Source: a virus (taxonomy: Duplodnaviria; Caudoviricetes). From it: a stretch of DNA of 39,283 nt. Made by a program: the position numbers and the translations under genes. The stretch spans positions 1-39,283 of the IMG/VR virus record IMGVR_UViG_3300030012_000948; one strand, 5' to 3'. A model generated the notes under the pieces. The model made no database searches and was not told where the DNA came from. It worked only from the letters and a program-made list of their open reading frames with translations. Of the stretch, positions 3,245 through 22,796 are shown in pieces (position 1 is the first letter of the stretch; every line of letters begins with the position of its first letter).

Positions 3245-3320
3245 ACGCGATTAATATAATTGTGTGATTCATAATATATAGTTTGATTGAGGGGTGGAAG
3301 TGATTAGCCACCCCTTTTTT
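3245..3320 (+). ncRNA. Putative 3'UTR-derived antisense sRNA 1 (hairpin - seed - terminator)
   Basis: Hairpin 3245..3265. Seed 3268..3284 is the exact reverse complement of 14001..14017 (exonuclease start region). Terminator 3289..3320. Conserved at 34946..35022. Confidence 0.65.
3289..3320 (+). terminator. Intrinsic terminator of the capsid/tail-tube operon
   Basis: GAGGGGTGG-loop-CCACCCCTT followed by a T run. Confidence 0.88.
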
Positions 3321-3330
3321 ATTTAAAAAT

Positions 3331-3684
3331 ATGCAAATATTAACTACAAGTGGCACACGAATTATTAACTTTATACCAAGAGAAACAATTACTGGTAGTA
3401 AGACCTATAAATTAGTGATAAAATCAGAAGCTCAAAATAAAGTTATATCAACAGATAATGATGCAACATTTTCTGAATTAGATTACTATTACCAATATTC
3501 AACTACACAAGCATTAATTGAGAATCAATACTATACTATTACAATCACTAACACAACAGATAACGCAATAATTTTTAAAGATAAAATGTATTGTTCAGAC
3601 CAAACACTTTCAGACTATGAAATTTCAAATGGTGTTTATATAGAACAAAGTACAGGAGATAACGAATTTATATATTATGGATAA
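3331..3684 (+). CDS. Hypothetical structural protein (117 aa)
   Basis: Overlaps the portal start; conserved in copy B. Confidence 0.6.
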   Translation: MQILTTSGTRIINFIPRETITGSKTYKLVIKSEAQNKVISTDNDATFSELDYYYQYSTTQALIENQYYTITITNTTDNAIIFKDKMYCSDQTLSDYEISNGVYIEQSTGDNEFIYYG

Positions 3685-5473
3685 TCTACACTTAATACAA
3701 TTAGGCCAATACGAAAGGCCAACAATCACAGAGGAACGTAATAAAGATTGGGTATCAATAGGCGATAACAATGATTATTATCAAAGTTTGATAGACGCCT
3801 ATATGGATAGCACAACAAACCAAGCAGTAATAAATGGTGTTGTTAATCAAATTTACGGAAAAGGATTAGATGCTACTGATTCAGCTGAAAAGCCAGACCA
3901 GTATGCACAAATGAAGAGTTTAGTAAAACCTCACGATTTAAGAAATGTTTGCCAAGATTTAAAGTTATTAGGAGAAGCTGCTTTTCAAATAACTTACAAT
4001 GGTAATAAAATATCAGCAATAACACATTTTCCAAGAGAAACTTTAAGAGCTGAAAAGATGAATGATAAAGGTGAAATAAAAAGCTATTTTTATTCTGCTG
4101 ATTGGAGTAAGGTTAATAGAAATACAAAACTAAAAAAGTTTCCTGTTTTTGGTAGTGGCGCACAAAATGAAATATTTATTATAAAAAGATACGTTACAGG
4201 TTTCTACTACTATTCACCAGCGGACTATAATATTTCGTATTCCATACTTGAAAACGAAGTTGCTTGTTATTTAATTAATGATACTCAGAATGGTTTTAGT
4301 GGTACAAAGGTTGTAAACTTTAACAATGGTGTGCCAGATAGAGAAAAGCAATTAGCTATTAAGAATGATGTAATGCAAAAACTTACTGGCAGCTATGGTG
4401 AAAAAGTAATTGTTGCATTTAACAATAATGCAGAAAGCAAAACAACTGTTGAGGATATACCACTAAATGATGCTCCAGCACATTATTCTTATTTAAGTGA
4501 AGAATGTAGTAGAAAGATTATGCTAACACATAGAGTTACTTCTCCATTACTTATTGGCTTAAGAGATGGTAATAATGGTTTAGGTAATAATGCAGATGAA
4601 ATACAAAATGCAAGCAGATTATTTAATAACGTAGTTATACAACCATACCAAAACCTTTTAATTGATAGCTTAGATACAATATTAGCAGTAAATGATATTA
4701 GTTTAAATCTATACTTTAAAACTATTGAGCCATTAGAATTTATGGAGTTAGATGATATTGATAATGCAGAAGTAGAAGAAGAACAAACAGGAATAAAAGA
4801 TGAAGAAACTGAATTAGAATTAATGGCTGCTAATGCTAAAAGAACTGCTTTAGATGAATTAATTGATTTAGGTATTGATGAAGAAGAACTATTAAAAGAT
4901 TATGAGATGGTTCACAGTGCTGAGGTTGATTATGATTTAGAAGAAGAACTTGATTTTGTAGTAACTGAAATAAATAAAACTTCTAAGAAAGAGTTTGCAA
5001 GTACAGGTAGTGCTAAACCATATAGAGATAGTAAACAAGATGGAATTTCTAAAAAGAAAACAGAAGAAGGTACTGAGTTTTTAGTTAGATATATGTATGA
5101 AGCAGCACCTAATCCAGCAAGTAGCTCAAGAACATTTTGTGATAAAATGATGGCTGCTAAAAAAGTATATAGAAAAGAAGATATTATTGAGATGGGTAAA
5201 AAACCTGTAAATGCTGGTTTTGGTAAAGGTGGTTCTGACACTTATTCAATCTGGCTCTACAAAGGCGGTGCAAGATGCAACCATAGATGGACAAGAAAAT
5301 TGTACGCAAGAAAAGGTGGTAGAAGTTTAGGCGAAGCAATATCAACTACACAAGCTATTAAAAGAGGTTTTAAACCCGAAACAAATGCAAAGAAAGTATC
5401 TATTGCACCAAAAAATATGAAGTATGCTGGCTATACTGCAGCTTATTGGAATGAAAAAGGATTTAAAAAATGA
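3677..5473 (+). CDS. Portal protein with acidic linker and C-terminal MuF-like (head morphogenesis) domain
   Basis: N-terminal ~355 aa portal-like (GKG motif, 'IMLTHRVTSPLLIG'). C-terminal SRTFC...KGGARCNHRW Cys/His motif resembles MuF domains. Confidence 0.75.
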   Translation: MDNLHLIQLGQYERPTITEERNKDWVSIGDNNDYYQSLIDAYMDSTTNQAVINGVVNQIYGKGLDATDSAEKPDQYAQMKSLVKPHDLRNVCQDLKLLGEAAFQITYNGNKISAITHFPRETLRAEKMNDKGEIKSYFYSADWSKVNRNTKLKKFPVFGSGAQNEIFIIKRYVTGFYYYSPADYNISYSILENEVACYLINDTQNGFSGTKVVNFNNGVPDREKQLAIKNDVMQKLTGSYGEKVIVAFNNNAESKTTVEDIPLNDAPAHYSYLSEECSRKIMLTHRVTSPLLIGLRDGNNGLGNNADEIQNASRLFNNVVIQPYQNLLIDSLDTILAVNDISLNLYFKTIEPLEFMELDDIDNAEVEEEQTGIKDEETELELMAANAKRTALDELIDLGIDEEELLKDYEMVHSAEVDYDLEEELDFVVTEINKTSKKEFASTGSAKPYRDSKQDGISKKKTEEGTEFLVRYMYEAAPNPASSSRTFCDKMMAAKKVYRKEDIIEMGKKPVNAGFGKGGSDTYSIWLYKGGARCNHRWTRKLYARKGGRSLGEAISTTQAIKRGFKPETNAKKVSIAPKNMKYAGYTAAYWNEKGFKK

Positions 5474-5973
5474 GTAAAGCACTATTTGTAACAAGACACG
5501 ATATTTCAGTATTTACTGCTGCTAATGGTAATATAGATAATGACAAACTGTTACCATTTATAAATCAAGCACAGGACATACATATACAAAATTACTTAGG
5601 TACTGAGCTTTATGTTAAAATACAAAATGATATAGTTGCTGGTACTTTAGCTAATCCTTATTTAGCATTGGTAAACGATTATATTAAAAATATGTTACTA
5701 CATTGGAGTATGGTGGAATACTTACCTTATGCTGGTGTTAATATTTCAAATGGTGGTATCTATACTAAGAATCCTGAAAATAGCACAGCATTAACAAAGG
5801 AACACGTAGATAGTTTAATTGAAAGAAGCAGAACAACAGCACAGTTTTACACTAACAGATTTATAGATTTTATGCAAAATAACGCAGCTGGATTAATACC
5901 TGAGTATTATAGTAATTCTCAAGAGGATATGTATCCAGATGATGTTGCAGATTTTGGTGGATGGGTACTTTAA
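5470..5973 (+). CDS. Probable head-tail adaptor/connector
   Basis: 167 aa predicted helical protein, coupled to the portal by an ATGA overlap; positional inference. Confidence 0.5.
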   Translation: MSKALFVTRHDISVFTAANGNIDNDKLLPFINQAQDIHIQNYLGTELYVKIQNDIVAGTLANPYLALVNDYIKNMLLHWSMVEYLPYAGVNISNGGIYTKNPENSTALTKEHVDSLIERSRTTAQFYTNRFIDFMQNNAAGLIPEYYSNSQEDMYPDDVADFGGWVL

Positions 5974-5982
5974 AAATATATT

Positions 5983-8040
5983 ATGCCAGATAATAACATA
6001 GAATGGGGACAAGGTGGTGTTAATAACACTAACGATTGGGGAAAAGCAAAAGCTAATTCTACCAATAATTTTGGTGCTGTTTATGATAGTTCACCAAGTG
6101 GTGATACTAATATTGCTGGTGGTGACCCTGTTGTATCAATAACTTATTCTGCAAGTGCTTTTTGTGCTGATGCTTCTGACCCTACACCAACAGTACAAAA
6201 CAACGCTGGTGCTGGCACATTTAGTTCTACATCTGGATTAGTATTTATTAGTACATCTACAGGACAAGTTGATATTTCTGCTTCAACTGCTGGTAGTTAT
6301 TTAATTACTTATACAGATACAGATTCAGCAACTGCTACATTTAACTTAACTATTAATGCTTTACCAACTGCTAATATTACAGGTACATTAAGTTTCTGCG
6401 CTGGTGATAGTACAATACTAACTGCTACAAGTGCAAGTTCTTACTTATGGTCTACAGGTGCAACAACGCAAGAACTAACCGTAACATCAGGTGGTTCATA
6501 TAGTGTTACTGTAACAGATTCTAATGGATGTAGTGCAACATCTTCAACTGTTACCGTTACAGAACATCCATTACCAACTGTTGAAATTACAGGTACATTA
6601 ACTTATTGTGTTGGTTCTAATACTACACTTACTGCAACTGCTGGTTTATCTTCTTACTTATGGTCAACAGGTGAAACAACACAATCTATAAATGTAACTG
6701 CTGGTAGTTATACAGTAACTGGTACAGATAGCAATGGTTGTAGTGCTACTTCTTCTGCTTCTACAGTAACAGAATTACCTTTAGATACTGCTACAGTAAC
6801 TTATAGTGCAAGTGCTTATTGTCAAATGCCTACTGGAGCAACTGCTGTAGATGGTTATTATCCACTATATTCTACAGAATCAGCAGCACAAGCAGAAAGC
6901 TCAGATGGAACAGCACACTCTCATGTATTAGGAGGTGTTACTTACTATATGCCTAATGATGGTGTAATTATATATCATGGTAGTTATTCACTTACAACAC
7001 CAGCACCAAGTATTACAGGTGAATCAGGTACATTTAGTGAATCTACTGGAAACTTATCTATAGATAGTTCAACAGGTGTTATCAATGTTAACACATCAAC
7101 TGCTGGAACATATACTGTTGTATATACTACAAGTGGAAGTTGTCCAAATACAGTAAATAATACTATTACAATAAATGCTTTAGATGGTGCTACATTTGGT
7201 TATTCTGCAAGTAGCTTACCACAAACAGGTACAGCAAGCTTAACAACTACACCAACTACTTCAGGTGGTACATATAGCGCATATCCGAGTGGTTTAAGTA
7301 TTAATTCTTCTACAGGTGAAATAGATTTAGCTGCTTCTACTATACAATCATATAAAATATTCTATGAAACAAGCGGTGCTGGGTGTCCTAATTCATCAAC
7401 ATTTGATTTAGCTGTAACTGCTGCTGGCATTTCAAATGTGTACAGTATGAGCTTTGATGGTTCAAATGATTATATAGATGCTGGTAGTGCATCTTATTTA
7501 AATAGTTTAAGTCAGTTTAGTATTTCAGTATGGTTTAATCTTACTACTGCTGCAAGTAATAAATGTATTGTTTCAGATTGGAATTATAACACAAGTCCTT
7601 TAGGTCATTTTGCATTACAAACGCAAGATGCTTCTGGCAGTAATTATGCTTTATTATTATTTATAAAAGCTACAAGTGATGCAGGTGTTAACAATGTTAA
7701 AACATCTGCTATATTAACTGAAAACACTTGGCATCATGCTGTATTCACTTATAACTCAGGTACAGTTACTTGTTATATTGATGGTTCTTCTGTTTCATTA
7801 ACAACAAACGGAACAATACCTACTAATTTGACTAATCAAGATGGTAATTTATTAATAGGTGATTTTGCTGGTTTAAATAGATTTTGGGGTGGTCAAATAG
7901 ACGAAGTAGGAATCTGGAATACAGCTCTAACATCTACACAAATAAGTGAGATATATAATGCAACAGGAACAAACACAACAAGTGACTTGTCAACTATTGA
8001 ATCAAGTAATTTGAAACTATGGTTAAGAATGGGCGACTAA
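5983..8040 (+). CDS. Adhesin-like fibre/decoration protein with Ig/PKD/SprB-like repeats and a C-terminal LamG (ConA-like) domain
   Basis: Repeats 'YLWSTG..T..I/L.V...Y.VT.TDSNGC' and 'GL.I.SSTG.ID'; LamG motifs 'FDGSNDYI...WHHAVFTY...YIDG...GQIDEVGIWN'. Confidence 0.8.
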   Translation: MPDNNIEWGQGGVNNTNDWGKAKANSTNNFGAVYDSSPSGDTNIAGGDPVVSITYSASAFCADASDPTPTVQNNAGAGTFSSTSGLVFISTSTGQVDISASTAGSYLITYTDTDSATATFNLTINALPTANITGTLSFCAGDSTILTATSASSYLWSTGATTQELTVTSGGSYSVTVTDSNGCSATSSTVTVTEHPLPTVEITGTLTYCVGSNTTLTATAGLSSYLWSTGETTQSINVTAGSYTVTGTDSNGCSATSSASTVTELPLDTATVTYSASAYCQMPTGATAVDGYYPLYSTESAAQAESSDGTAHSHVLGGVTYYMPNDGVIIYHGSYSLTTPAPSITGESGTFSESTGNLSIDSSTGVINVNTSTAGTYTVVYTTSGSCPNTVNNTITINALDGATFGYSASSLPQTGTASLTTTPTTSGGTYSAYPSGLSINSSTGEIDLAASTIQSYKIFYETSGAGCPNSSTFDLAVTAAGISNVYSMSFDGSNDYIDAGSASYLNSLSQFSISVWFNLTTAASNKCIVSDWNYNTSPLGHFALQTQDASGSNYALLLFIKATSDAGVNNVKTSAILTENTWHHAVFTYNSGTVTCYIDGSSVSLTTNGTIPTNLTNQDGNLLIGDFAGLNRFWGGQIDEVGIWNTALTSTQISEIYNATGTNTTSDLSTIESSNLKLWLRMGD

Positions 8041-8051
8041 AGAATTAAGAT

Positions 8052-10259
8052 ATGAGCAACTACTACAACAGACAATGGCGTTTGCCTAACAATGAGAATA
8101 AAGACAAGCAAAGTAACTATTCGCTTTCATTTGATGCTTCAAGTTCACAATACATTACAACTACAGCTTCTGTAAACGGTTATTCAAGTTTTACAATTTC
8201 AGCTTGGGCTAAAGCAGATACTTTAGCAAATGCAGATACTTTATTGGGACAATGGAGAAACAGCAACACATCTAACTCTGCTTTTTTAATGTATGTAATT
8301 AACACTACAACAATGGGCTTTTATATAGGTTCTGGCAGCTCTGCAATTTTAGCTGGTGGTAACACTACACTATCTACTGGACAATGGTATCACTTTTGCG
8401 CAACTTGGGATGGAACAACAACTAAATTATATATAAATGGTGTTCAAGAATCAACCACTGGAAGTGCATCCAGTATTAATACAACAACTGTAGATTTATT
8501 AATAGGAGCTTATAATAATAATGGTGGTACAGGTATTGAATCAAGCAAAACATGGAACGGTCAAATAGATGCAGTATCCATTTATGATTATGCTCTTCCA
8601 GCAACAGGAACAAATTCTGTAGCTACTCTTTATGGTTCAAGCTCTACTGGTATAGGTAATCCAATGAGTTTAAATCCAAAGCCAGTGGCGATGTATAATT
8701 TAGGTGATAAATCAGCGTTTAATGGAGCTAATTATTTAGTGCCTAATAGTTCTTTGAAAGATTATGTTTTTTCTTTTGATGGAAGTAATGATTATATAAA
8801 TTTTGGCAATGATAGTAGCTTACAGCCAGCAAACGCTATAAGCATCAGCGCTTGGGTAAACTTTAGCACTGTAGTAAATTATGGTGCAATATTATTTACA
8901 GGAAATGGAAATGGAAATAGTGGTTGTTATTTATTAACTGTTGTGTCCAATAAATTTTACTTTTATATTCGTAATACTAGCTGGGTTTATGTTGAAGCAA
9001 CTGGATTTACAATAACAACAGGCACTTGGATTCATTTAGTTGCTACTTATGATAAACAGAATTTAAAATTATATGTAAACAATAGCTCTCCTTATACTCA
9101 ATCAGAAACTAATTCTATTTTATATGGAGCGTCTTCTTCTACTAAAATTGGTACTTATAATGGTAATTATTTTAACGGTTCTATTTCAAATGCTCAAATA
9201 TTCAACACAGCGCTACCAGCAACAGGTTCTAACTCAGTAGAAACTCTTTATAATAATGGCTCTCCACTTACTTCAATGAGTGGTTTTTCTTCTTTGCAAG
9301 GTTGGTGGAAATTAGATGCTTCTGCTACTTATGATTCATCAACAACAACTTGGTCTATCCCTGATGACAGTACTAATTCTAATGATGGCACAAGCTCAGG
9401 AATGACACAAGCCAATTTAGTACAGAGTGATTTAAGTTTCAAAACTTCTTATTCACCTTATGCTTTAGATTTTGACGGAACAAATGATTATATAAATGTG
9501 CCTAATAATAATTCTTTAGATTTTGGAACAAATACTGATTTCACTTTGTCAATGTGGGTAAAAAGAGCGTCAACTGGTAACTTTTATAACTTATTGTTTA
9601 ATGGTGATACAAATGGTGCTTTTTGGTGGAGGTTTCAGTCAGATGACACTATAAGATTTTTTCTTGATTATGGTTCTACTTATGATGATGTTCAAACTAC
9701 TGCTACTATTACAGATTCAAACTGGCATCATTTAGTAGCTGTAGCAGATAGAGATACACAATTATCTATATATATAGATGGTCAACTATCTGCAAGTAAT
9801 ACAGTTTCAAATTCTGGTTCAATAAGTACAACATTAGATTTTAAAATTGGAGCAAGATATGATAACACACAAACATTTTCTGGCTCTCTTTCAAATTGTT
9901 CAGTTTGGAACGCTGCTTTATCATCTGCACAAGTATCAGAAATTTATAGTGAAGGAGTACCATCTAATCTGAACAACCATAGTGCATATGCAAACTTAGT
10001 AAGCTGGTGGCAGTTAGGTTCTAATAGTTCTTTCAATACTAACTGGACTGTGCTTGATGAAGTAACTACAAGTGGCAACAATGGAACATCTGTAAATATG
10101 ACTGAAGATGATATTGTAGATGGAGTAGGAAGTTATGCTAATGGTTTAAGTTCTGGAATGGGAGGCGATGAAGTCGTGGGTAACGCTCCCTACAGTAGTA
10201 GTAATTCTCTATCAATCAACATGGATGTACTTGATAGAACAACAGACACGCCAAGTTAA
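8052..10259 (+). CDS. Receptor-binding/fibre protein with three tandem LamG (ConA-like lectin) domains
   Basis: Three repeats of 'FDG..DYI...ISAW...W.H...T.D.....LY.NG...G.I'. Confidence 0.82.
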   Translation: MSNYYNRQWRLPNNENKDKQSNYSLSFDASSSQYITTTASVNGYSSFTISAWAKADTLANADTLLGQWRNSNTSNSAFLMYVINTTTMGFYIGSGSSAILAGGNTTLSTGQWYHFCATWDGTTTKLYINGVQESTTGSASSINTTTVDLLIGAYNNNGGTGIESSKTWNGQIDAVSIYDYALPATGTNSVATLYGSSSTGIGNPMSLNPKPVAMYNLGDKSAFNGANYLVPNSSLKDYVFSFDGSNDYINFGNDSSLQPANAISISAWVNFSTVVNYGAILFTGNGNGNSGCYLLTVVSNKFYFYIRNTSWVYVEATGFTITTGTWIHLVATYDKQNLKLYVNNSSPYTQSETNSILYGASSSTKIGTYNGNYFNGSISNAQIFNTALPATGSNSVETLYNNGSPLTSMSGFSSLQGWWKLDASATYDSSTTTWSIPDDSTNSNDGTSSGMTQANLVQSDLSFKTSYSPYALDFDGTNDYINVPNNNSLDFGTNTDFTLSMWVKRASTGNFYNLLFNGDTNGAFWWRFQSDDTIRFFLDYGSTYDDVQTTATITDSNWHHLVAVADRDTQLSIYIDGQLSASNTVSNSGSISTTLDFKIGARYDNTQTFSGSLSNCSVWNAALSSAQVSEIYSEGVPSNLNNHSAYANLVSWWQLGSNSSFNTNWTVLDEVTTSGNNGTSVNMTEDDIVDGVGSYANGLSSGMGGDEVVGNAPYSSSNSLSINMDVLDRTTDTPS

Positions 10260-10278
10260 TAATATTAAATAAATAAAA

Positions 10279-10524
10279 ATGAATAATAGAACATACATAA
10301 TTTGTAATTTATCAGATAGCAACCTTGTGTTATTTTCACAAGTAAATCAAAGCTCTGCGCAATCTGTTAGAAGAAATTTAGCTAATACACAAATGGTTTT
10401 AAGTTATCAAGTTGAACCAAGTTTTATAACTGATGGAACTTTAACACCTTTAGGAACTTATAATCATAGTGAAATATTAGAGATTTTAGCAGGTAGTGAC
10501 TGGACACCTGAAGACCCAGAATAA
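10279..10524 (+). CDS. Hypothetical protein (81 aa), possible fibre-associated chaperone
   Basis: Clean ORF after the LamG genes; function from position only. Confidence 0.55.
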   Translation: MNNRTYIICNLSDSNLVLFSQVNQSSAQSVRRNLANTQMVLSYQVEPSFITDGTLTPLGTYNHSEILEILAGSDWTPEDPE

Positions 10525-13074: not shown

Positions 13075-13230
13075 ATGTCAAGAACAATAAATTATACAAC
13101 AAGAACTTTTTATGTACCAGCAAATAAAATGGATACATTAGTTCAATTTCAAAATAAATGCAAAGAGAATGGACACAAATCTTATTCTGAAGTATTATTA
13201 AAACTAATGGAACAATACAACGAATTATGA
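13075..13230 (+). CDS. Putative ribbon-helix-helix (Arc/CopG-like) regulator, 51 aa
   Basis: MSRTINYTTRTFYVP (strand), MDTLVQFQNKCKENG (helix), SYSEVLLKLMEQY (helix); first gene of the early operon. Confidence 0.6.
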   Translation: MSRTINYTTRTFYVPANKMDTLVQFQNKCKENGHKSYSEVLLKLMEQYNEL

Positions 13231-13997: not shown

Positions 13998-14012
13998 TTT
14001 AAACTATATATT

Positions 14013-14741
14013 ATGAAAAAGAATCACTTAAGTTATTCAGCATTAAGTCAATTTAAAAAATCTCCTAACCATTTATTAGCATACTGGAACAAAGAATTAA
14101 AAACTACTGATGCTATGCAGTTTGGAAGTTTAATCCACAAAATGTTATTAGAACCAGAATCTTTTTATTATGATTTTGCTGTTTTTGGCGGGGCAAGAAG
14201 AGCTGGTAGACAATGGTTAGAATTTAAAGAAGAAAACGAAGGTAAAACACTAATTAAACAACAAGAATTAGATGATGCAAATAGAATAATTAACAATGCT
14301 ATGTTACATCCAGTACTTACTGAAATGATGCAAAATAAAATAGAATCTGAAGTTAAATTAGAATGGCAACACAAAGATGTTAAATTTAAGGGTTTTGCAG
14401 ACCTTTTAACAACGTTTAATGGTAGAAAATGTGTTGTTGATATTAAAACAACTAATGATGCTGGTAGAAGATTTGAAAGAGATTTATACTATAATGATTA
14501 TAAAATGCAGTTGGCAATGTATCAAGACCAATACGATAAAGATACAGATGCTTATATTGTAGCAATAGAAACTACAACACCATTTAATGTTCAGATATAT
14601 AAATTAGATGATAGTTTATTATTTAAAGGTTGGATGGATTATGATTTTTATACAGATAAGTTTAAAGAATGGGATGGTAGTCCTCAAGGTTACACTAATG
14701 ATATAGTAGAAGTAAAAACAGAAGTGGAGGAAATAGTATGA
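14013..14741 (+). CDS. PD-(D/E)XK exonuclease, RecE/ExoVIII (DUF3799)-like
   Basis: LSYSAL, FGSLIH, KGFAD, VDIKTT and YKMQLAMY motifs. Confidence 0.85.
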   Translation: MKKNHLSYSALSQFKKSPNHLLAYWNKELKTTDAMQFGSLIHKMLLEPESFYYDFAVFGGARRAGRQWLEFKEENEGKTLIKQQELDDANRIINNAMLHPVLTEMMQNKIESEVKLEWQHKDVKFKGFADLLTTFNGRKCVVDIKTTNDAGRRFERDLYYNDYKMQLAMYQDQYDKDTDAYIVAIETTTPFNVQIYKLDDSLLFKGWMDYDFYTDKFKEWDGSPQGYTNDIVEVKTEVEEIV

Positions 14742-14893
14742 AAAAACTTGCAATAATAGGTGGGTTAAGTTTAATGACTGCTGGAACAACTAATATGTTA
14801 TGGCACAAGCAAAAGTTAGATTTAAATCCAAATACATTTGCAATAGCTACAGGAGGTTTTTTTGTAGCTGTAGGAATAACAATTAAATTTTAA
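14738..14893 (+). CDS. 51-aa hydrophobic/membrane protein ending VGITIKF
   Basis: Hand-translated; ATGA overlap with the exonuclease; two hydrophobic segments. Confidence 0.6.
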   Translation: MKKLAIIGGLSLMTAGTTNMLWHKQKLDLNPNTFAIATGGFFVAVGITIKF

Positions 14894-14909
14894 TTAAAAA
14901 CAAATAACA

Positions 14910-15164: not shown

Positions 15165-15169
15165 GTTTT

Positions 15170-15493
15170 ATGAAGCGGTCGAAGGTCTTAGAAGCATTGG
15201 GTTTAACGTCACAGGATATACAAAATATGTTGATGAACGGTTACACGATGCCAGAGATAGCAAAGAAGTATAAAATAAGTTATCTTTCATTGATACAAGC
15301 GTATAAGATACAAAAGAAAAATTTTAAGTATGTTGATTTTATACAACCTAAAGAAAAAGTGAAGGATATAAAAAACGTATCCTTCACCTTTGATAAACTA
15401 TATACAGAAGAATCACTTAACGAAGAAGAACTACTTGCTTACTATAAGTATGAAGCTAAAAACAAAGCATATTATGAATATCAAAAACTATAA
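15170..15493 (+). CDS. HTH-containing protein
   Basis: 'GYTMPEIAKKYKISYLSL' helix-turn-helix pattern. Confidence 0.6.
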   Translation: MKRSKVLEALGLTSQDIQNMLMNGYTMPEIAKKYKISYLSLIQAYKIQKKNFKYVDFIQPKEKVKDIKNVSFTFDKLYTEESLNEEELLAYYKYEAKNKAYYEYQKL

Positions 15494-15497
15494 AATT

Positions 15498-16043
15498 ATG
15501 AGTAAACACTTAAATAAAGAAATAGGAATGTTTGGGCAAAAACTTGTCTGCAAATATTTAAAAGAAAATAAAATTAATTATTGGACTAATGAGGATAAAA
15601 ACAACTACAATAAAAATGATATTATTATGGAAAAAGATAATAATCTATATTTTGTAGAAGTTAGCACTAAAAGACACACTTTTAAGATTAATCACAAATG
15701 CACAGGAAAAAATAAAACACAAATAGATAGATACATAGAAAGAGAGTCATTATATGCTCATAAATATTTTATTGTATTTGTAGATTATAGCACCAAAACA
15801 ATTTATGGTAATTATATAAGTAATTTAATGAATAAAACCTATAGTAAGGGAAAAGAATTTCCATATGTTGAAAACTCTGGTGGACAAGTGATTACATATT
15901 TTAATTTAGAAAATATGACTGTTTTGGCAGATATTAATGAAGATGATTTAGATAAACTTGGTGAATTACATTTTAAAAACAAAACACGAAAAGAACAAGT
16001 AAATCTTTTTGATGCAATAAATGATTTGAAGAATGAATATTAA
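15498..16043 (+). CDS. PD-(D/E)XK-like endonuclease (YraN/restriction-like)
   Basis: 'IGMFGQKLVCKYL...DIIM...YFVEVSTK'. ATG 15498 preferred over TTG 15390 because it follows the upstream stop and has a good leader. Confidence 0.55.
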   Translation: MSKHLNKEIGMFGQKLVCKYLKENKINYWTNEDKNNYNKNDIIMEKDNNLYFVEVSTKRHTFKINHKCTGKNKTQIDRYIERESLYAHKYFIVFVDYSTKTIYGNYISNLMNKTYSKGKEFPYVENSGGQVITYFNLENMTVLADINEDDLDKLGELHFKNKTRKEQVNLFDAINDLKNEY

Positions 16044-16695
16044 TAAAGTACATAATGTAGATTGTTTAAACTATATAAATACAATACCTGACAACTTTAT
16101 TGATTTAGTAATAGTTGACCCGCCATACGGAGATAACTCTGGTTATGGTAGAAAAAACAAAACTATATTAAACAATGAAAGCGAAGAAATAAATTATAAG
16201 TTTTTAAAAGTTATATATAATAAAATGAAAAACGACACCAGCTTATATTTATTTACTAATCATAAATTTGCTTTTCAACTAAAAAACTTTGCATTAGAAA
16301 ATAAGTTTAATTATCGTATGCTTTGTATAATGGTAAAGAATAATATAGGTATGGGTTATGGTTTTAGAAATCAATACGAGTTGTGCTTAGTGTTGGAAAA
16401 AGGTAAAGCAAAATACAACCTTAATAATTTTAGCAATGTTTGGAAAATGAAGCACGTTAATCACGATGATAATTCACATCCACATCAAAAAGAATATGAT
16501 ATTATAAGAAAAATCATATTACACTCAAGTGCGGAAAATGATATTGTGTTTGATGGTTTTATGGGAAGCTTTTCTACAGCAATAGCATCTTATAAAGAAA
16601 AAAGAAACTTTATTGGTTGTGAATTAGATGCTAAATGGTATAAATTAGGACAAAAAAAACTAAATCAAATTATGAATCAAACAACATTATTTTAA
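16033..16695 (+). CDS. DNA methyltransferase 1 (N6A/N4C, beta class)
   Basis: VDPPY before HPHQK and VFDGFMGS...FIGCELD. Confidence 0.9.
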   Translation: MNINKVHNVDCLNYINTIPDNFIDLVIVDPPYGDNSGYGRKNKTILNNESEEINYKFLKVIYNKMKNDTSLYLFTNHKFAFQLKNFALENKFNYRMLCIMVKNNIGMGYGFRNQYELCLVLEKGKAKYNLNNFSNVWKMKHVNHDDNSHPHQKEYDIIRKIILHSSAENDIVFDGFMGSFSTAIASYKEKRNFIGCELDAKWYKLGQKKLNQIMNQTTLF

Positions 16696-16697
16696 TT

Positions 16698-17081
16698 ATG
16701 AAAGAATTACCATATTTTAAATTTTATCCTAATCAATGGATAACAGGCAGTATATCATTTATGGATTTAGATGTTCAAGGTGCATTTATGAAAGTTTGTT
16801 GCTACTACTGGAGCAAAGAATGTAATGTAACAAGAAAACAAATTAAAACATTAATACCTAAACAATGGAGTACTTTAGTAGATGCTGAGTTATTTAAGAT
16901 AGAAGAAGAAACTATTAGCATTAAATGGTTAGATGAACAATACCAGCAAAGATTAGTAGAACACAAGCGAAATGTTAGCAACGGAAAGAAGGGGGGCTTA
17001 AGCAGGGCTAAAGCATTAAGAAAAGATAAGATAAGAAAAGATAATAAAGACCCTTATTTAACTACAACATTTATAAAATGA
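16698..17081 (+). CDS. Short replication initiator (YdaU/DUF1376-like N-terminal domain)
   Basis: 'LPYFKFYPNQW...GAFM...NGKKGG' pattern, coupled to the helicase, with internal repeats. Confidence 0.7.
   Translation: MKELPYFKFYPNQWITGSISFMDLDVQGAFMKVCCYYWSKECNVTRKQIKTLIPKQWSTLVDAELFKIEEETISIKWLDEQYQQRLVEHKRNVSNGKKGGLSRAKALRKDKIRKDNKDPYLTTTFIK
16996..17044 (+). repeat. Candidate replication origin inside the initiator gene
   Basis: GCTTAAGC-N7-AAGCATT followed by purine-rich AAGAT/AAGAA repeats; near-duplicate at 22111..22154. Confidence 0.5.
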
Positions 17082-17935
17082 TAGTTAATAAAGAAGATAA
17101 CTTAAAGTACTTATATGCTTTTAAAGAAGGTAAAATTAAACGTGGTTTAGAAATTGGAAACGAGTTTGATAAGTGGTATGTTCACAAACGTGGTAGCTTT
17201 ACAGTTATTGTTGGATTAGATAATGTTGGTAAAACTTTTTTTATGTTATGGTACTTTTTATGCTTAAGCATTAAACACAATGTTAAATGGTGTATATGGA
17301 GCGGAGAAAATAGCTCAGGACAATTAACAAGAGATTTAATACAAATGTATGCACAATGTAAATTGACTAAATTAACTAAACCACAAATAGATAAATACAA
17401 TAATAAAATTTCACAGTGGTTTACTTTTGTTAGTAATAAAAAAATGTATAATCATAAAGATTTACTTAAGATATTTAAAGAGAGTAATTGTGGTGCTTGT
17501 GCTATTGACCCATTCACAGGATTAAACCACAACAGAAGAGTAAATCAATATGAACGTAACTATTTGATTTGCAATGATATAAGAGAGTTTTGTAATACAA
17601 CAGGTAAATCAATATATGTAATGACTCACCCAATGACTGAATCAGCAAGAAGAGTTTACCCACCAAATCACGAATTTGCATCATACATACAACCACCAAG
17701 AAAATCAGATGTTGAGGGTGGACAAGTATTTGCTAATCGCTGCGATTCTTTTCTTTCGATACATAGGTTTACTAATTCACCTGAAAGCTGGATGATGACA
17801 CAAGTAAGAGTAGAAAAAATTAAAGACAAAGAAACAGGAGGAACACCAACTCTTGACCAACCATTATGTTTTGATTACAATAGTGGATTAGGATTTACAA
17901 TTGGTGGTAATAATGTATTAAAACAAAAAAAATGA
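17078..17935 (+). CDS. Replicative helicase (SF4, DnaB/Twinkle-like P-loop)
   Basis: Walker A GLDNVGKT, WSGE, Walker B AIDPF, VMTHP and 'VEKIK' motifs. Confidence 0.85.
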   Translation: MIVNKEDNLKYLYAFKEGKIKRGLEIGNEFDKWYVHKRGSFTVIVGLDNVGKTFFMLWYFLCLSIKHNVKWCIWSGENSSGQLTRDLIQMYAQCKLTKLTKPQIDKYNNKISQWFTFVSNKKMYNHKDLLKIFKESNCGACAIDPFTGLNHNRRVNQYERNYLICNDIREFCNTTGKSIYVMTHPMTESARRVYPPNHEFASYIQPPRKSDVEGGQVFANRCDSFLSIHRFTNSPESWMMTQVRVEKIKDKETGGTPTLDQPLCFDYNSGLGFTIGGNNVLKQKK

Positions 17936-18171
17936 GATATAAATATGAAGACATACAAAAGTTTATGGAGTTTAAAACTTGGACTGATAAACAAAAAATA
18001 GATAAATTACTTGAAATAGATTGTAGTTTATATGCACATCTTGGCACAGATTCAACAAGAAGTGAAAAAGATGAAGTAAAAAGAAGAAGTTTAGAAATAT
18101 ATAGAATTATAAAAACATTAGATAAAAAACTTGGTGATGAATTACTTTACTCAGAAGATTTAAAACAATGA
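17932..18171 (+). CDS. Hypothetical protein (79 aa)
   Basis: ATGA overlaps on both sides. Confidence 0.65.
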   Translation: MRYKYEDIQKFMEFKTWTDKQKIDKLLEIDCSLYAHLGTDSTRSEKDEVKRRSLEIYRIIKTLDKKLGDELLYSEDLKQ

Positions 18172-18797
18172 ATATTACTAATGAAGATAATATGGAGCTA
18201 ATGGCAAGGTATGAAGATAATCACTTTGACCTTGCTATAGTAGACCCTCCTTATGGATTAGGAAAAAAAACTACAAGTGGCGGAACTAATAAAAGTAAAG
18301 GAGGTAAAAATTATCAAGCAGCTAAATGGGATAACCACGATTGGGATAACGAAATACCAACAGATAAATATTTTATTGAATTAAAAAGAGTAAGTAAGAA
18401 CCAGATTGTATGGGGTGGTAATTATTTTCCTTTTTTATGGGATAAAAGTTGTAGGAGTTTGATAACTTGGGATAAAATGGTTTATCTGCCTACTATGAGT
18501 CAAATTGAATATGCTTGGTATTCTAAAGATAAGTTGCCACAACTAATAAAAATAGATAACAATGATTCTAACAGAACACATCCAACACAAAAACCTGTTA
18601 AATTATACGAATGGTTATTAATGAATTACGCAAAAGAAGGAGATAAGATTTTAGACACTCATTTAGGAAGTGGCTCAATAGCTTTAGCTTGCCACAATTT
18701 AGGATATGATTTAACTGCTTGTGAACTTGACAAAGATTACTATGAAGCAGCTATAAAAAGAATAGAACAACACAAACAACAAATAAGAATGTTTTAA
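18168..18797 (+). CDS. DNA methyltransferase 2 (N6A/N4C, beta class)
   Basis: VDPPYG, WGGNYF, HPTQKP and ILDTHLGSGS motifs. Confidence 0.92.
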   Translation: MNITNEDNMELMARYEDNHFDLAIVDPPYGLGKKTTSGGTNKSKGGKNYQAAKWDNHDWDNEIPTDKYFIELKRVSKNQIVWGGNYFPFLWDKSCRSLITWDKMVYLPTMSQIEYAWYSKDKLPQLIKIDNNDSNRTHPTQKPVKLYEWLLMNYAKEGDKILDTHLGSGSIALACHNLGYDLTACELDKDYYEAAIKRIEQHKQQIRMF

Positions 18798-18798
18798 T

Positions 18799-19062
18799 AT
18801 GAATGATTTAGATTATACAATTACAAAGAACAAATTAGAAATATTGCTTTTAAAAGCACAAGAAGGTTTAAAAGTAGGTAAGGTAACACAAAGCAAATTA
18901 GATGCAGTAGAAACATTGCAAGACACTTTAAAATGTATGTTAGAGCTGAGGTTTACAATTGATGAACTAAATAAAAAACAAAGTTTATTAACAATGCAAA
19001 ATGTAAAAGCATACAAAGAAACTGCTGAACTTAAGAAAAAATTTAATACTTTTAAAAAATAA
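18799..19062 (+). CDS. Hypothetical coiled-coil protein (87 aa)
   Basis: Clean ORF within the operon. Confidence 0.6.
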   Translation: MNDLDYTITKNKLEILLLKAQEGLKVGKVTQSKLDAVETLQDTLKCMLELRFTIDELNKKQSLLTMQNVKAYKETAELKKKFNTFKK

Positions 19063-19072
19063 ACTATAAATT

Positions 19073-19165
19073 ATGGGAATTACAATAATATTAACAATAA
19101 CACATTTAACCTGTTTTATATTAGGTATAATAGTAACACAAATCATTGAAAGCAAATTCAAATAA
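19073..19165 (+). CDS. 30-aa single-TM peptide
   Basis: MGITIILTITHLTCFILGIIVTQIIESKFK; leader nearly identical to that of the exonuclease gene. Confidence 0.55.
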   Translation: MGITIILTITHLTCFILGIIVTQIIESKFK

Positions 19166-19322
19166 AAAGAAAAGAACTCTTAATGAGTACAGACAAACAA
19201 AGGACTCGTACTATATTAATCCTCATACTCCTGTTGAGTATAACATTGCTTTACTGTGTAGGATATACCCTAATGATGCAGAGTTAGGAGCTGTAATTAG
19301 AAAACACTTTCAAAAGATATGA
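19146..19322 (+). CDS. Small hypothetical protein (58 aa, YPNDAELGAVIR motif)
   Basis: Hand-translated from a TTG; stop overlaps the ATG of the next gene; start uncertain. Confidence 0.5.
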   Translation: MKANSNKKKRTLNEYRQTKDSYYINPHTPVEYNIALLCRIYPNDAELGAVIRKHFQKI

Positions 19323-19669
19323 GTTTAAATGCAATTCAAAAAGGTAAAAGATTTGAGCTAAAAATAGCCAAAGATTTAGCAAAGAAGTTTGAAACTAATA
19401 TTAGAAGAACACCAAACAGCGGTGGTTTAAGTATTAAAGGAGATATAATGACAACAAGCGGAATACTATCTGAGTATAGCTGGGAGTGTAAGAACCAAGA
19501 GAAATTAAATATCTGGAAAGCATTAGAACAAAGTGAAGGAGATGCAAGAGGAACATTAAAAACACCATTAGTTGTATTTACCAAGAACTTTGAAAAAGAT
19601 TATGTTGCATTAAAATATGATGACTTTGTTAATTTACTTCTTGAATTAAATGAGTACAGAAGTAGATAA
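19319..19669 (+). CDS. Holliday junction resolvase-like PD-(D/E)XK nuclease
   Basis: KGKRFE, SGG...GDI, ECKNQE and PLVVF motifs. Confidence 0.75.
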   Translation: MSLNAIQKGKRFELKIAKDLAKKFETNIRRTPNSGGLSIKGDIMTTSGILSEYSWECKNQEKLNIWKALEQSEGDARGTLKTPLVVFTKNFEKDYVALKYDDFVNLLLELNEYRSR

Positions 19670-20159
19670 TATACTACATATTCTAATAAGAGATGAGAAA
19701 ACTTGGCTTAACATGGCTGAGGAAATAAGCAGCAGTAGTAAAGTACCAGCAAAAGATTTACTACATGATTTTTATATTGCTTTACATAGTAAAATTGATA
19801 GTGGTAAAGTAAAAATTAATGACATCCTGTATAACGATTCTTTAAATAAAGCGTTTATATATAAGATGATGTACAATATATTTATTGATAACATAAGAAA
19901 CGACAGGGACATATTAATAGATAAAGAACTTAAAAACATTATAGAAGCAGACAACGAACCATATATTGATATTGAAAAAGTAGTTGATGAAATAGTAGAT
20001 GGCTTTTATTGGTTTGATAGAAAGTTATTTAATTTATATAGAAAGAAATTCCATAGCATAAGAAAACTATCAGCAGCAACTAATATATCACACGTAGTTG
20101 TATGGAGAACTATAAATAATTGTATTAAAGAGATTAAAAAAAAAATTAATGAAAAGTAA
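19650..20159 (+). CDS. Phage ECF-like RNA polymerase sigma factor
   Basis: Region-2-like 'AKDLLHDFYIAL...AFIYKMMYNIFIDNIR' and region-4 HTH 'SIRKLSAATNISHVVVWRTINN'; 169 aa. Confidence 0.75.
   Translation: MSTEVDNILHILIRDEKTWLNMAEEISSSSKVPAKDLLHDFYIALHSKIDSGKVKINDILYNDSLNKAFIYKMMYNIFIDNIRNDRDILIDKELKNIIEADNEPYIDIEKVVDEIVDGFYWFDRKLFNLYRKKFHSIRKLSAATNISHVVVWRTINNCIKEIKKKINEK
19830..19859 (+). promoter_or_regulatory. Putative late promoter embedded in the sigma gene, upstream of the terminase operon
   Basis: TATAAC-gattctttaaataaag(16)-CGTTTATA. Confidence 0.7.
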
Positions 20160-20526
20160 AGGTTTAGGCGATACAGTAGAAAAGATAACAAAAGCTACTG
20201 GTATAAAACAAGCTACTGATTGGATATTTGATAAACTTGGAAAAGATTGCGGATGTGATGCAAGAAAAGAAAAATTAAATAAATTATTTCCATATAAAGT
20301 AGAATGTTTAAACGAAGAAGAATATATGTATTTAAAAGGATTCTTCACAATAAATAAAAACATAGTAAACAACATAGAACAAAAAGAACTATTAAAAATA
20401 CATAATAGAGTATTTAACACCAACAAAAAAGCATCCAGTTGTGGCAGTTGTGTAAAAGATTTAGTTAATACTATGAAAAGATTATATAATGAATATGAAT
20501 ACGAAAGAGAAAGTAAAAGCAATTGA
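20149..20526 (+). CDS. Hypothetical phage protein (GLGD...DCGC...CGSC), possibly Zn-binding
   Basis: Cys motifs; lies between the sigma and terminase genes. Confidence 0.65.
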   Translation: MKSKGLGDTVEKITKATGIKQATDWIFDKLGKDCGCDARKEKLNKLFPYKVECLNEEEYMYLKGFFTINKNIVNNIEQKELLKIHNRVFNTNKKASSCGSCVKDLVNTMKRLYNEYEYERESKSN

Positions 20527-20576
20527 AAAAAAGCTATTAATGTTTTTAAACAAATACAGTGAAAATACAGTGAAAA

Positions 20577-20915
20577 ATGTCAAGAGAACAAAACTTAAAA
20601 AGTTGGACTAAAGGCCAATCAGGTAATCCAAAAGGCAAACCAAAAGGCGCTAAAAATAGAAGCACAATTATTAAAGAAATACTTAACTTAATGGTTAAGA
20701 AAGTTGATGCAGATGGTAAAGCAGTTTGGCAAAGTAAAGAGTATTTAATGGTTGAAGCATTAGTTAATAAAGCTATTGATAAAGGGGATGTAAATGCTTT
20801 TAATGCTATATATAATAATTTGTATGGTAACTTAAAAGATACTGTTGATGTAAATACTACAGAAGAAGTAAACCATGATTTCAGAAAAATCATTTCAAGG
20901 ATTAAAGCTCAATAA
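20577..20915 (+). CDS. terS: Terminase small subunit (DUF5681-like)
   Basis: 'WTKGQSGNPKGKPKG' N-terminus, directly upstream of the large subunit. Confidence 0.7.
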   Translation: MSREQNLKSWTKGQSGNPKGKPKGAKNRSTIIKEILNLMVKKVDADGKAVWQSKEYLMVEALVNKAIDKGDVNAFNAIYNNLYGNLKDTVDVNTTEEVNHDFRKIISRIKAQ

Positions 20916-22104
20916 AAAGTATTTAGTATTAGATGAATCATTTGCACGTTATTTTATTGTAACTGGTGGTAGAGGTTCAGGTAAATCATTTGCAGTTAAC
21001 TCAGTACTATTACTATTAACTTATCAAGCAGGGCATACTATATTATTTACACGTTACACGCTAAGAGCTGCCAGCATTAGTATTATACCTGAGTTTATAG
21101 AAAAGTTAGAACTACTTGGGGTTATTGACCAATTCAAAATAACAAAGGATGAAATAATAAATAAAGGCAATGGTAGCAAGATAATATTTAGAGGTATCAA
21201 AACAAGTTCAGGTGACCAAACTGCAAATCTTAAATCATTGACTGGTATAACTACGTGGGTAATGGATGAAGCTGAGGAACTTAATGATGAGGATATATTT
21301 GATAAGATTGATTTATCTGTTAGAAACAAAATACAAGAAAACAGAGTTATATTAATATTAAACCCAACAACCAAAGAACATTTTATTTATAAACGTTGGT
21401 TTGAAGATAGGGGAGTTAGTGCTGGTAGTAATATAACAAAAGAAGATACAACATACATTCACACAACATATTTAGATAATATAGACAACCTTTCAGAAAG
21501 CTATATTAAGCAGATTGAAACAATGAAAGTAAGAAGGCCAAACAGATACAAGCATACAATAGAGGGTGCTTGGTTAGATAAAGCTGAGGGTGTTATATTT
21601 ACTGATTGGAGTATAGGAGAATTTAAACAAGTAGGCAAAGTTGTATTTGGCCAAGATTATGGTTTTAGCAATGACCCATCTACATTAGTTAAAACAAGTA
21701 TAGATAAAGAAAATAAAATAATCTATATACAATTATGTTTCTACCAAACTAAACTAACTACAAGTGAGATATTACAACTTAACAAGAAGTTTGCAGCAGA
21801 TAATTTAATAGTAGGTGATTCAGCAGAACCAAGATTAATAACAGAACTAAGCAGAGATTGTAATGTAGTGCCAGCTATTAAAGGACAAGGCAGTATTACG
21901 TTTGGAATTAGTTTATTACAAGATTATGATTTAGTAATAACTGAAGATAGTACAGAATTAATTAAAGAGTTAAATAACTATTGTTGGTTAGAAAAGAAAT
22001 CACAAACACCAGTTGATAATTTTAATCATGCTATTGATGCGCTGAGGTATGCAGTTAGCTACCAATTACAGAATCCTAATTTAGGAGAATATCACATTTA
22101 TTGA
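20875..22104 (+). CDS. terL: Terminase large subunit (PBSX/SPP1-like)
   Basis: GGRGSGKS, WVMDEA, LNP, GQDYG, DSAEP and NHAIDALRY motifs. Confidence 0.95.
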   Translation: MISEKSFQGLKLNKKYLVLDESFARYFIVTGGRGSGKSFAVNSVLLLLTYQAGHTILFTRYTLRAASISIIPEFIEKLELLGVIDQFKITKDEIINKGNGSKIIFRGIKTSSGDQTANLKSLTGITTWVMDEAEELNDEDIFDKIDLSVRNKIQENRVILILNPTTKEHFIYKRWFEDRGVSAGSNITKEDTTYIHTTYLDNIDNLSESYIKQIETMKVRRPNRYKHTIEGAWLDKAEGVIFTDWSIGEFKQVGKVVFGQDYGFSNDPSTLVKTSIDKENKIIYIQLCFYQTKLTTSEILQLNKKFAADNLIVGDSAEPRLITELSRDCNVVPAIKGQGSITFGISLLQDYDLVITEDSTELIKELNNYCWLEKKSQTPVDNFNHAIDALRYAVSYQLQNPNLGEYHIY

Positions 22105-22156
22105 AGCCCCGCTTAAGCCACCCTTAAGCATTTAGATAAGATAAGAAAAGATAAGA
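22102..22156 (+). repeat. Intergenic second copy of the origin-like element
   Basis: Three 11-bp-phased units (tgaagccccgc/ttaagccaccc/ttaagcattta), plus 21 nt (22134..22154) identical to 17024..17044. Confidence 0.6.
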
Positions 22157-22197
22157 TATATAAGAAAAAATAAAAAAAAATAAAAAAAATACTATGT

Positions 22198-22231
22198 TTT
22201 GTAATTTGTATTATAATTATACTTATATTTG
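22198..22231 (+). promoter_or_regulatory. Host sigma-A promoter of the plus-strand accessory slot, with TATAATTATA palindrome (22212..22221)
   Basis: Perfect TATATTTG (-7 box) at 22224..22231, TTTG upstream, and an A-tract UP-like region. Confidence 0.75.
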
Positions 22232-22237
22232 ATTATT

Positions 22238-22257
22238 ATTAATTAAAACCAAAACAA
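22238..22257 (+). repeat. Conserved 20-nt leader, copy 2
   Basis: ATTAATTAAAACCAAAACAA, with the last A being the A of ATG. Confidence 0.9.
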
Positions 22258-22412
22258 TGATTATAGAAACAATGTTAAAATTAGAAAGAGAAAGATACTC
22301 AAGAAAGTTTTTAAATAAACATTTTAATAAAATGACAAAAAAACAAAAAGAACAAGCTATGAAAATACTTGTTGATTTTCAAAAATTTAAAGATAGAGAA
22401 TTAGCATTGTAA
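22257..22412 (+). CDS. Accessory small basic protein (51 aa)
   Basis: MIIETMLKLERERYSRKFLNKHFNKMTKKQKEQAMKILVDFQKFKDRELAL; lies exactly between two leader copies. Confidence 0.75.
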   Translation: MIIETMLKLERERYSRKFLNKHFNKMTKKQKEQAMKILVDFQKFKDRELAL

Positions 22413-22431
22413 TTAATTAAAACCAAAACAA
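22412..22431 (+). repeat. Conserved 20-nt leader, copy 3
   Basis: Exact copy starting in the upstream stop codon. Confidence 0.9.
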
Positions 22432-22432
22432 A

Positions 22433-22648
22433 ATGAAATATCAAGTAATAATAAATGACACTAAAGAAACAGTTTTTACATCAGATAATGGAAAGTATAC
22501 AAAAGTGTGGGAAGATGACTATTATAGGTCTTTGTCTTATAAAAGTGAAAAAGGGTTTTTAAATGCATTAAATAAAATGATTAATAAAAAAAGTCAGATT
22601 AGAGCGTGGAATGAAGATGGTACACCAAATAAAGAATTTAAATTATAA
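22433..22648 (+). CDS. Accessory small protein (71 aa)
   Basis: Follows the conserved leader and precedes a terminator. Confidence 0.75.
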   Translation: MKYQVIINDTKETVFTSDNGKYTKVWEDDYYRSLSYKSEKGFLNALNKMINKKSQIRAWNEDGTPNKEFKL

Positions 22649-22676
22649 GTCAAAATAAACAAAGAACTAAAATTAT

Positions 22677-22703
22677 AAGCTACTGTAATAGGTAGCTTTT
22701 TTT
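22677..22703 (+). terminator. Intrinsic terminator of the accessory slot
   Basis: AAGCTAC-tgtaatag-GTAGCTT plus T run. Confidence 0.8.
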
Positions 22704-22719
22704 ATTATATTTGAAATAA

Positions 22720-22796
22720 GCAAATAATAGCCAATGTTAATTTGCGTTTTGGTTTAAAGTAGGTATTCGGCAAAAGAGCGTTACCTACTTTTTTTT
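22720..22796 (+). ncRNA. Putative stand-alone antisense sRNA 2 (~77 nt; hairpin - seed - terminator)
   Basis: TATATTTG box at 22706..22713; stem GCAAAT/ATTTGC; seed GTTTTGGTTT (22746..22755) complementary to AAACCAAAAC of the shared leader; terminator AAAGTAGGTA/TACCTACTTT plus T run. Confidence 0.65.

Follow-up and report, generated by a model that had tools for sequence, protein, structure and literature searches.

The stretch of DNA considered here, called the window throughout, is the IMG/VR record IMGVR_UViG_3300030012_000948 at its full length of 39,283 nucleotides (nt), from a virus of the Caudoviricetes (Duplodnaviria). It carries two intergenic segments that resemble small RNAs, E1 (3245-3320) and E2 (22720-22796). 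E1 is structured and conserved; a segment within it, the seed, is complementary over 17 bases to the start of a distant RecE-like exonuclease gene, and seed and early-gene leaders have changed in concert between lineages of related phages. E1 probably acts in trans as a small RNA (sRNA) which covers the start codons of the exonuclease and of a few other early replication genes, blocking their translation late.

In the proposed mechanism, E1 would arise late, either as the 3′ terminus of the capsid-tail transcript or by processing from it; no promoter box was found in front of it. It would pair in trans over about −12 to +5 of the target, with a second block at codons 4-5, and the pairing would exclude the ribosome as the Bacteroides sRNAs GibS and FopS do. 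Late genes would thereby feed back on early ones, lowering recombination and initiation before packaging.

E1 and the start of the exonuclease gene

E1 is the 3′ untranslated region (UTR) of the likely major tail gene and starts five bases past the stop at 3239. The first-pass annotation of this DNA had described E1 and E2 as unrelated in sequence and alike in size and architecture. Both segments exist and fold better than shuffles, with z −4.2 for E1 (−4.4 for the slice 3240-3325) and z −3.2 for E2. The common architecture is also borne out: each has a 5′ hairpin, a middle segment that is mostly unpaired (unpaired probability about 0.6-0.9) and a terminator-type hairpin followed by a U run. 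The shared size of 76-77 nt is uninformative, as E2 bodies in relatives measure 34-113 nt and the 5′ end of E1 is undefined. Nor do the two form a single sequence family; this was tried and rejected, for the E1 covariance model gives no E2 match at E ≤ 1 and finds one copy per strain segment, never E2.

For the exact slice 3245-3320, the minimum-energy fold buries the E1 seed; its centroid and the fold of 3240-3325 keep the seed open. In the 5′ hairpin 88% of cells are paired, a figure whose controls take no account of relatedness. Two-sided change is seen in one of seven pairs of this hairpin, changes being mostly one-sided, and the consensus fold of the E1 copies lacks it. The terminator, which is shared with the parent gene, shows compensatory changes in two of five consensus pairs. 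Neither an intergenic TAnnTTTG box nor a late-promoter-like motif is found at E1. The seed motif GTGATT is repeated in two hairpin loops, that of the E1 terminator (3299-3305) and that of a hairpin 3′ of the capsid-like gene in the second strain present in the record (34358-34365).

All 17 bases of 3268-3284 are complementary to 14001-14017, which comprise the leader, the AUG and the next two bases of the exonuclease gene. The leader family AAACTATAwATTATG had already been assigned to the E1 seed; this assignment holds, and the exonuclease match is longer than was stated then. Across a six-base bulge, 3264-3269 can pair with 14022-14027 (codons 4-5) as a second block. The codon of His5 is CAC in 43 of 47 cases, and His20 and His120 are equally fixed, as CAT. 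When the UTR was shuffled 20,000 times and compared with 50 starts, a 17-base run never arose and a 16-base run arose once. None of the 642 internal ATGs of this genome reaches a 10-base run with E1, and at the starts of 36 records outside the clade the longest run with the seed is 12. Cofolding puts the exonuclease start ahead of every other start (−18.4 kcal/mol, the runner-up having −13.4), and early genes account for seven of the nine top starts. The capsid-like and tail gene starts give runs of 3 bases each. Complementarity of the seed to a distant initiation region is therefore beyond chance for E1, and weakly so for E2. A coding stretch at 15395-15420, in the gene at 15170, resembles the exonuclease start (AAACTATATA then GAATCACTTA) and is also found in the related records G003 and G029.

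In the window, AAACTATAwATTATG occurs at 14001 and 19061 only, with a one-base-longer form at 15485. A duplex of −18 kcal/mol or better is reached at about 3 of 20 early starts (14013, 15498 and 19073), and the other early starts match poorly. The DUF1376-like gene, whose start is the top match in lineages D and E, has a weak E1 match here. The earlier claim that E1 addresses a leader family of early and middle genes at large is not upheld, as only these three or so starts carry the leader.

Seeds and leaders in related phages

The comparison set comprises 69 assembled records, 22 of which have both E1 and the RecE-like exonuclease. The E1 core pattern is found at 45 of 80 loci, and the exact 21-base core in 115 viral stretches. 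A looser core pattern was scored in 136 distinct parent-gene 3′ UTRs; it is present in 17/17 at 85% protein identity or more and in 17/18 at 75-85%, and it fades with distance (4/68 at 65-75%, 0/33 below 65%). In 26 aligned E1 copies the core is nearly invariant and both hairpins vary. In 14 of the 22 records no other start gives as long a run as that of the exonuclease. The exonuclease start has energy rank 2 in G003, G005 and G029, with a run of 11 bases; their leader is shorter by two bases and has extra pairing further upstream.

The seeds of E1 match cognate starts in the relatives' own genomes far above chance, as the first-pass annotation had anticipated, and seed and early leaders change together. 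In G009 and in the clade of G013, G023 and G040, the own seeds give 15 and 14 bases on the own exonuclease starts, where the window seed gives 6. Because G009 and the G013 clade stand on separate branches in both protein trees, G009 grouping with G021, the concerted change of seed and leader is likely to have been two separate events. The second pairing block is kept via two G-U pairs in G011 and is rewritten on both sides in G009.

Beyond the exonuclease, the early leaders form loose dialects, counted here with the exonuclease start omitted and over rows from related genomes that are not independent. With the lineage-A seed, runs of at least 9 bases are seen at 33/194 early and 12/248 late starts. 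For lineage C, the own seed gives 14/35 early and 0/52 late starts, and the A seed 1/35 early starts. AAACT directly before ATG is found at 18/38 early starts in lineage C as against 5/230 in A, and ATATT directly before ATG at 37/230 in A as against 0/38 in C. The genome-wide leader "barcode" suggested earlier appears only partly supported, because the leader is common in viral contigs and is carried by so few early starts here. A loose early dialect with a few replication and recombination targets stands; a code for all early and middle genes does not. A broader scheme is conceivable, though we hold it rather unlikely. Leader dialects would serve as addresses, a late-operon RNA reading the early dialect and co-evolving with it and a promoter-driven modular RNA reading the accessory dialect, so that new genes behind the standard leader would be controlled by an RNA-only layer of lytic timing.

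Several observations weigh against E1 as a regulator of the early genes of its own phage. The concerted changes probably amount to only two or three events, because related genomes are not independent, and lineage E is an exception to them. The exonuclease match is weak (5-8 bases) in G019, G021, G052, G053 and G061. In four of these five records the DUF1376-like gene has energy rank 1, and in G052 rank 9. This target was picked after seeing the data, and the prediction was therefore tested on L860, a lineage-D contig whose exonuclease leader lacks the match. The prediction held: the D seed ranks an early gene first and the DUF1376-like gene second of 38, with energies of −21.1 and −19.2 as against −12.0 and −14.2 for the window seed on the same two starts; the seed used is that of L024, a separate contig, 94.8% identical beside the seed. 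Lineage E (G019, G052, G053 and G061) has a near-window seed which gives 5-8 bases on the own exonuclease and 16 on the main lineage-A start, and it lacks an early bias (4/52 early, 3/68 late). G052 is without a good early target (ranks 23 and 9), and it shows no enrichment of early starts. In G010, in which the exonuclease was not found, the top two energies belong to late genes. Many A-rich starts pair well with the G009 seed, whose 18 bases on lineage-C starts exceed the match to its own. In G041, L049 and L051 most of the core is kept and the AUG complement is lost. Among 119 viral stretches with the 17-base leader, 39 of which have short flanks, the leader precedes this exonuclease in 46, other open reading frames (ORFs) in 52 and short or cut frames in 21. 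As to expression, contigs of relatives from two RNA libraries extend across E1, and most of E2 is covered by one contig, all 24 runs being available as assembled contigs with small shares; such contigs carry no strand, end or level and may be DNA.

Two further details concern these genomes. In G010 an unrelated gene (MNQFKIRCS) stands in the exonuclease place at 14628 of the oriented record; its start has the longest run (11) and lies outside the energy top five. In G041, L049-L052 and the second block of G013, GTGTGAT and the AT run are kept, the AUG complement being lost.

The E1 core could instead be kept for a role in the stability, processing or protein binding of an abundant mRNA at whose end it lies, its match arising from an AT-rich vocabulary shared by Bacteroidota. 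We consider this improbable, although it would suit several of the facts: the leader is widespread among viral contigs, the rest of the core persists in variants that have no AUG complement, lineage E fits start-codon pairing poorly, and TTCAT is enriched 5′ of terminators in distant relatives (19 as against 8.2 expected in 117 segments). A shared vocabulary would not lead one to expect that seed and early leaders switch jointly on separate branches while late leaders do not, nor the 17-base run, which none of the shuffles reproduced. In addition, a 400-kb Bacteroidia stretch (G109) is free of such a bias, 1/35 terminator-upstream segments reaching 10 bases as against 4.6 expected. Outside the E1 clade, a family-wide pattern was considered and set aside as weak. 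In the 36 phage records, 4/117 terminator-upstream segments reach 12 bases (0.58 by shuffle, 1.51 against other genomes); at 10 bases the own genome gives 7 and other genomes 7.7. In G063, G076, G069, G033 and G017, pre-terminator segments at sites unrelated to E1 match several own starts at 11-14 bases. G063 has two or three of them, and their enrichment over other genomes is weak.

Three further roles for the seed are very improbable: as a DNA-level site, as the translation start of a small antisense gene, or as a partner in cis of the nearby portal start. Read on the minus strand, the core gives a leader followed by an ATG that opens ORFs of 37-54 amino acids (aa) in 13/34 records. The orientation of the seed and its register to the AUG do not vary, and substitutions that leave a G-U pair are tolerated. 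An antisense gene was rejected because its frame is not kept, the distance to the upstream stop differing by numbers of bases that are not multiples of three. The portal start lies 400 bases downstream of E1 and matches 11 bases, which counts for such pairing in cis and against the main reading. The matching bases, however, form the coding end of the gene upstream of the portal and do not track the seed in lineages C and E, so that the portal was discarded as main target.

E2, accessory cassettes and genome layout

E2 is plausibly a short transcript. That it is a separate transcript from a host-type promoter which damps the genes of accessory cassettes is possible, and we hold it only tentatively. 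A TAnnTTT(G/A) box stands 5′ of all 35 distinct E2 variants, whose bodies are of several unrelated types and of which 33 keep GTTT(T/C)GG. The E2 seed matches AAACCAAAAC, which is found 5′ of all four cassette genes (22246, 22420, 961 minus and 32637 minus) and also twice within coding sequence (28264 and 26991 minus). In cofolding, the four cassette starts are the four best duplexes of E2 (−12.2). The 10-base match is modest: at least three starts are matched in 86 of 20,000 shuffles and at least one in 3,274, counts to be read with the fact that the cassette leaders are copies of one motif.

Sixty-nine distinct intervals between the terminase and the next gene were surveyed. AACCAAA-led genes are present in 20 of them, every one with E2; 32 have E2 without such a gene, two have elements with other seeds and the same promoter and terminator, and 15 have neither. 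The association of E2 with the cassettes has p 0.002 (0.02 among close relatives only) and is confounded by physical linkage. Covariation of E2 with its leaders is not seen: no compensatory change was found, the seed of L120 is altered without leader change, and G026 and G030 carry the seed GTTTTGGG with no matching leader seen. The proposal that the E2 seed addresses accessory leaders thus stands as to the match at four cassette starts; it is weakened by the length of 10 bases, by the missing covariation and by five partial records which keep the seed without a matching leader. A type I toxin-antitoxin system made of E2 and the cassettes is not supported, as the match has only 10 bases and 32 of the 52 GTTT(T/C)GG intervals lack such a gene.

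The persistence of E2 without a cognate gene bears on another explanation. E1 and E2 might mainly silence early and accessory genes of co-infecting relatives, a form of antisense exclusion in which self-matches are a by-product that some lineages escape. Seeds of lineage E, which fit the main lineage-A exonuclease start far better than their own, are in keeping with it. Most lineages, on the other hand, have their own start as the best match, alone or tied, and that start changes together with the seed; escape from self-targeting would not favour such a pattern. Exclusion is accordingly judged quite improbable.

Some details of these loci may be added. In L084 and L100 (G022), upstream of the homologue of 22841, an E2-type promoter box and terminator flank other seeds; the seed of L100 contains an AUG complement and has no clear target in its partial record. 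The slots 22104-22720 and 690-1000 are hypervariable and hold small ORFs behind a common promoter and leader, with about 20 different proteins in relatives. The second strain has a differing accessory gene at the same site (32431-32625 as against 732-944). A gene starting with MKLYKGD, which we take to be DNA-methylase-like, is often inserted directly after the terminase gene in relatives.

The record itself looks chimeric. From 31706 to 39283 it duplicates the start of the window at 86-89% identity, so that it appears as a genome of about 31.7 kb to which a partial segment of a second strain is joined; E1 is consequently present twice (3240 and 34940). Nearly all genes lie on the plus strand, with portal and lysis genes, an early block from 13075 to about 20159 (exonuclease, methylases, helicase, resolvase and a weak sigma-like gene) and then terminase and tail genes. 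The cultured relatives found are the Nonlabens phages P12024S and P12024L only, whose gene order is similar. We infer a Bacteroidota host, because of this kinship and of the TAnnTTTG boxes. The parent protein of E1 is 38% identical to gp03 of P12024S and is likely the major tail protein, a label taken from its position after the capsid-like gene. The DUF1376-like gene would, from its position, be an initiator.

An RHH repressor and an ECF sigma factor had been named as partners of the RNAs, and both are only leads. The 51-aa ORF 13075-13230, which opens the early block and has a 9-base E1 match at its start, is RHH-like (Atlas 0.91), and the sigma-like gene has a PHROG match with E 5e-4. Two DNA methyltransferase genes lie in the early block (16033-16695 and 18168-18797), and no integrase was found among 47 window proteins scanned. 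The motif A(A/G)CGTTTATA is found at 19830-19872, 1057, 22826 and 32734, with ACGATTC upstream at 19850 and 22826. It stands 5′ of late genes and also occurs within the sigma-like gene, upstream of the terminase genes, and is possibly a late promoter inside the gene for its own sigma factor.

Table 1. Coordinates of E1, E2, their predicted targets and related features in the window
Feature	Position	Strand	Remark
Parent gene of E1, 182 aa	2691..3239	+	PHROG 19091 (unknown function)
E1 5′ hairpin	3245..3265	+	3′ arm (..TGTG) better conserved than 5′ arm, continues into seed
E1 conserved core	3262..3289	+	Includes 3268-3284, complementary to 14001-14017 over 17 bases
E1 intrinsic-terminator-type hairpin and U run	3289..3320	+	Predicted fold
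E1 copy in second strain	34941..35028	+	Core unchanged
Main predicted E1 target	14001..14027	+	Leader, AUG and codons 1-5 of exonuclease gene
RecE-like PD-(D/E)XK exonuclease	14013..14741	+	PHROG 412 exonuclease VIII, E 7e-41; Pfam DUF3799, E 6e-25
Near copy of leader	15485..15500	+	5′ of gene at 15498
DUF1376-like gene	16698..17081	+	Directly 5′ of DnaB-like helicase; Atlas score 0.95 to DUF1376 clusters
Second leader copy and 30-aa hydrophobic ORF	19061..19165	+	One mismatch to seed; ORF from 19073
Accessory cassette	22224..22648	+	Promoter box and two AAACCAAAAC leaders (at 22246 and 22420); two ORFs, 51 and 71 aa long, neither with a family match
TAnnTTTG box ahead of E2	22706..22713	+	Bacteroidota −7 promoter consensus as in PMC7366714
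E2 5′ hairpin	22720..22745	+	Unrelated bodies in relatives
E2 seed GTTTTGGTTT	22746..22755	+	Complement of cassette leader
E2 terminator-type hairpin and U run	22756..22797	+	Predicted fold
Accessory cassette gene, 70 aa	732..961	−	AAACCAAAAC leader
Different accessory gene, 64 aa	32431..32637	−	Same AAACCAAAAC leader, equivalent site of second strain

Known systems and significance

The mRNAs of Bacteroidetes are devoid of Shine-Dalgarno sequences and their translation relies on structure and upstream adenines (PMC6847099). GibS and FopS of Bacteroides thetaiotaomicron repress by pairing over start regions (PMC7366714, PMC11697453), FopS RNAs measure about 65-70 nt and FopS-14 is derived from a 3′ UTR (PMC11697453). 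In its predicted form E1 resembles them: it would be short and AU-rich, with an unpaired seed followed by an intrinsic terminator, and would pair over starts of mRNAs lacking Shine-Dalgarno sequences. It differs in its 5′ hairpin, in being single copy, whereas FopS has 12-15 paralogues, and in its predicted targets, which are phage replication genes rather than host glycan transporters. Membership in FopS (RF04319) was rejected, with 0 matches at E ≤ 10 in G000, whereas the control genome of B. thetaiotaomicron does match. Other Rfam families give three weak matches in the window (E 0.86-3.5, far below gathering), the only one on E1 being L20_leader (E 3.5), and were likewise dismissed.

E1 and E2 might accordingly be FopS-like RNAs directed mainly at host mRNAs, for instance those of outer-membrane transporters, with phage leaders that copy the host style. 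FopS works in this way, binding RbpB and repressing SusC-type host mRNAs, and a FopS-like sequence is reported in a Caudovirales phage, in a passage that does not state a function alongside (PMC11697453). Moreover, a host-type promoter box precedes E2, which persists in records without a matching phage leader. The genomes that were searched speak against such a role. The 21-base E1 core at up to 2 mismatches occurs in 2/301 Bacteroidia genomes as against one control match, in a sample which, like G109, may not include the actual host. In the 400 kb of G109 the longest E1 run over 373 starts is 10 and both leaders are absent. Capsid-like and tail genes, expected to need strong leaders, are without the motif. 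Taken together, a mainly host-directed function is unlikely, and host copies or targets of E1 were set aside, the core matches being near control and G109 having no anti-start bias. The cultured relative P12024S has no match to the E1 model, and a prophage search over 8 loci returned no clear prophage of this clade.

A phage RNA with short seeds that acts in trans is C4 of phage P1. It is a phage-encoded antisense RNA controlling the phage gene ant (PMC8201110). C4 lies in the immunity region and keeps lysogeny, whereas E1 closes a structural operon and its predicted targets lie in the replication module, over 10 kb distant; the Rfam c4 model has no match in the window. Other phage RNAs that lower genes of their own phage are sar of P22, OOP and aQ of lambda and PAK_P4as15, described as antisense to single genes, aQ being proposed to act in cis (PMC12197685). 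E1 is unlike them in that it does not overlap its targets and has a short seed and several predicted targets. In T4, RegA and RegB damp early phage mRNAs post-transcriptionally at initiation regions, in a Shine-Dalgarno host. They are proteins; their counterpart E1 would be an RNA.

The first-pass annotation had presented the system as undescribed. This is too broad with regard to the mechanism, since start-codon pairing is already known from Bacteroides host sRNAs (PMC7366714, PMC11697453). For a late-operon 3′ RNA aimed at the early genes of its own phage no report was found, in a search that was thin on subscription papers and supplements.

The natural seed-leader pairs of different lineages are ready matched and mismatched controls, and the idea is therefore testable by reporter in a laboratory Flavobacterium without culturing the phage. 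These pairs could also serve as orthogonal sRNA-leader parts for Bacteroidota. Early-gene shut-off in phages is known mostly from proteins in Escherichia coli phages. If E1 acts as proposed, the RNA tail of a late operon would silence, in trans, recombination and initiation genes of its own phage. Such late-to-early feedback would be new in form and would suit hosts without Shine-Dalgarno pairing.

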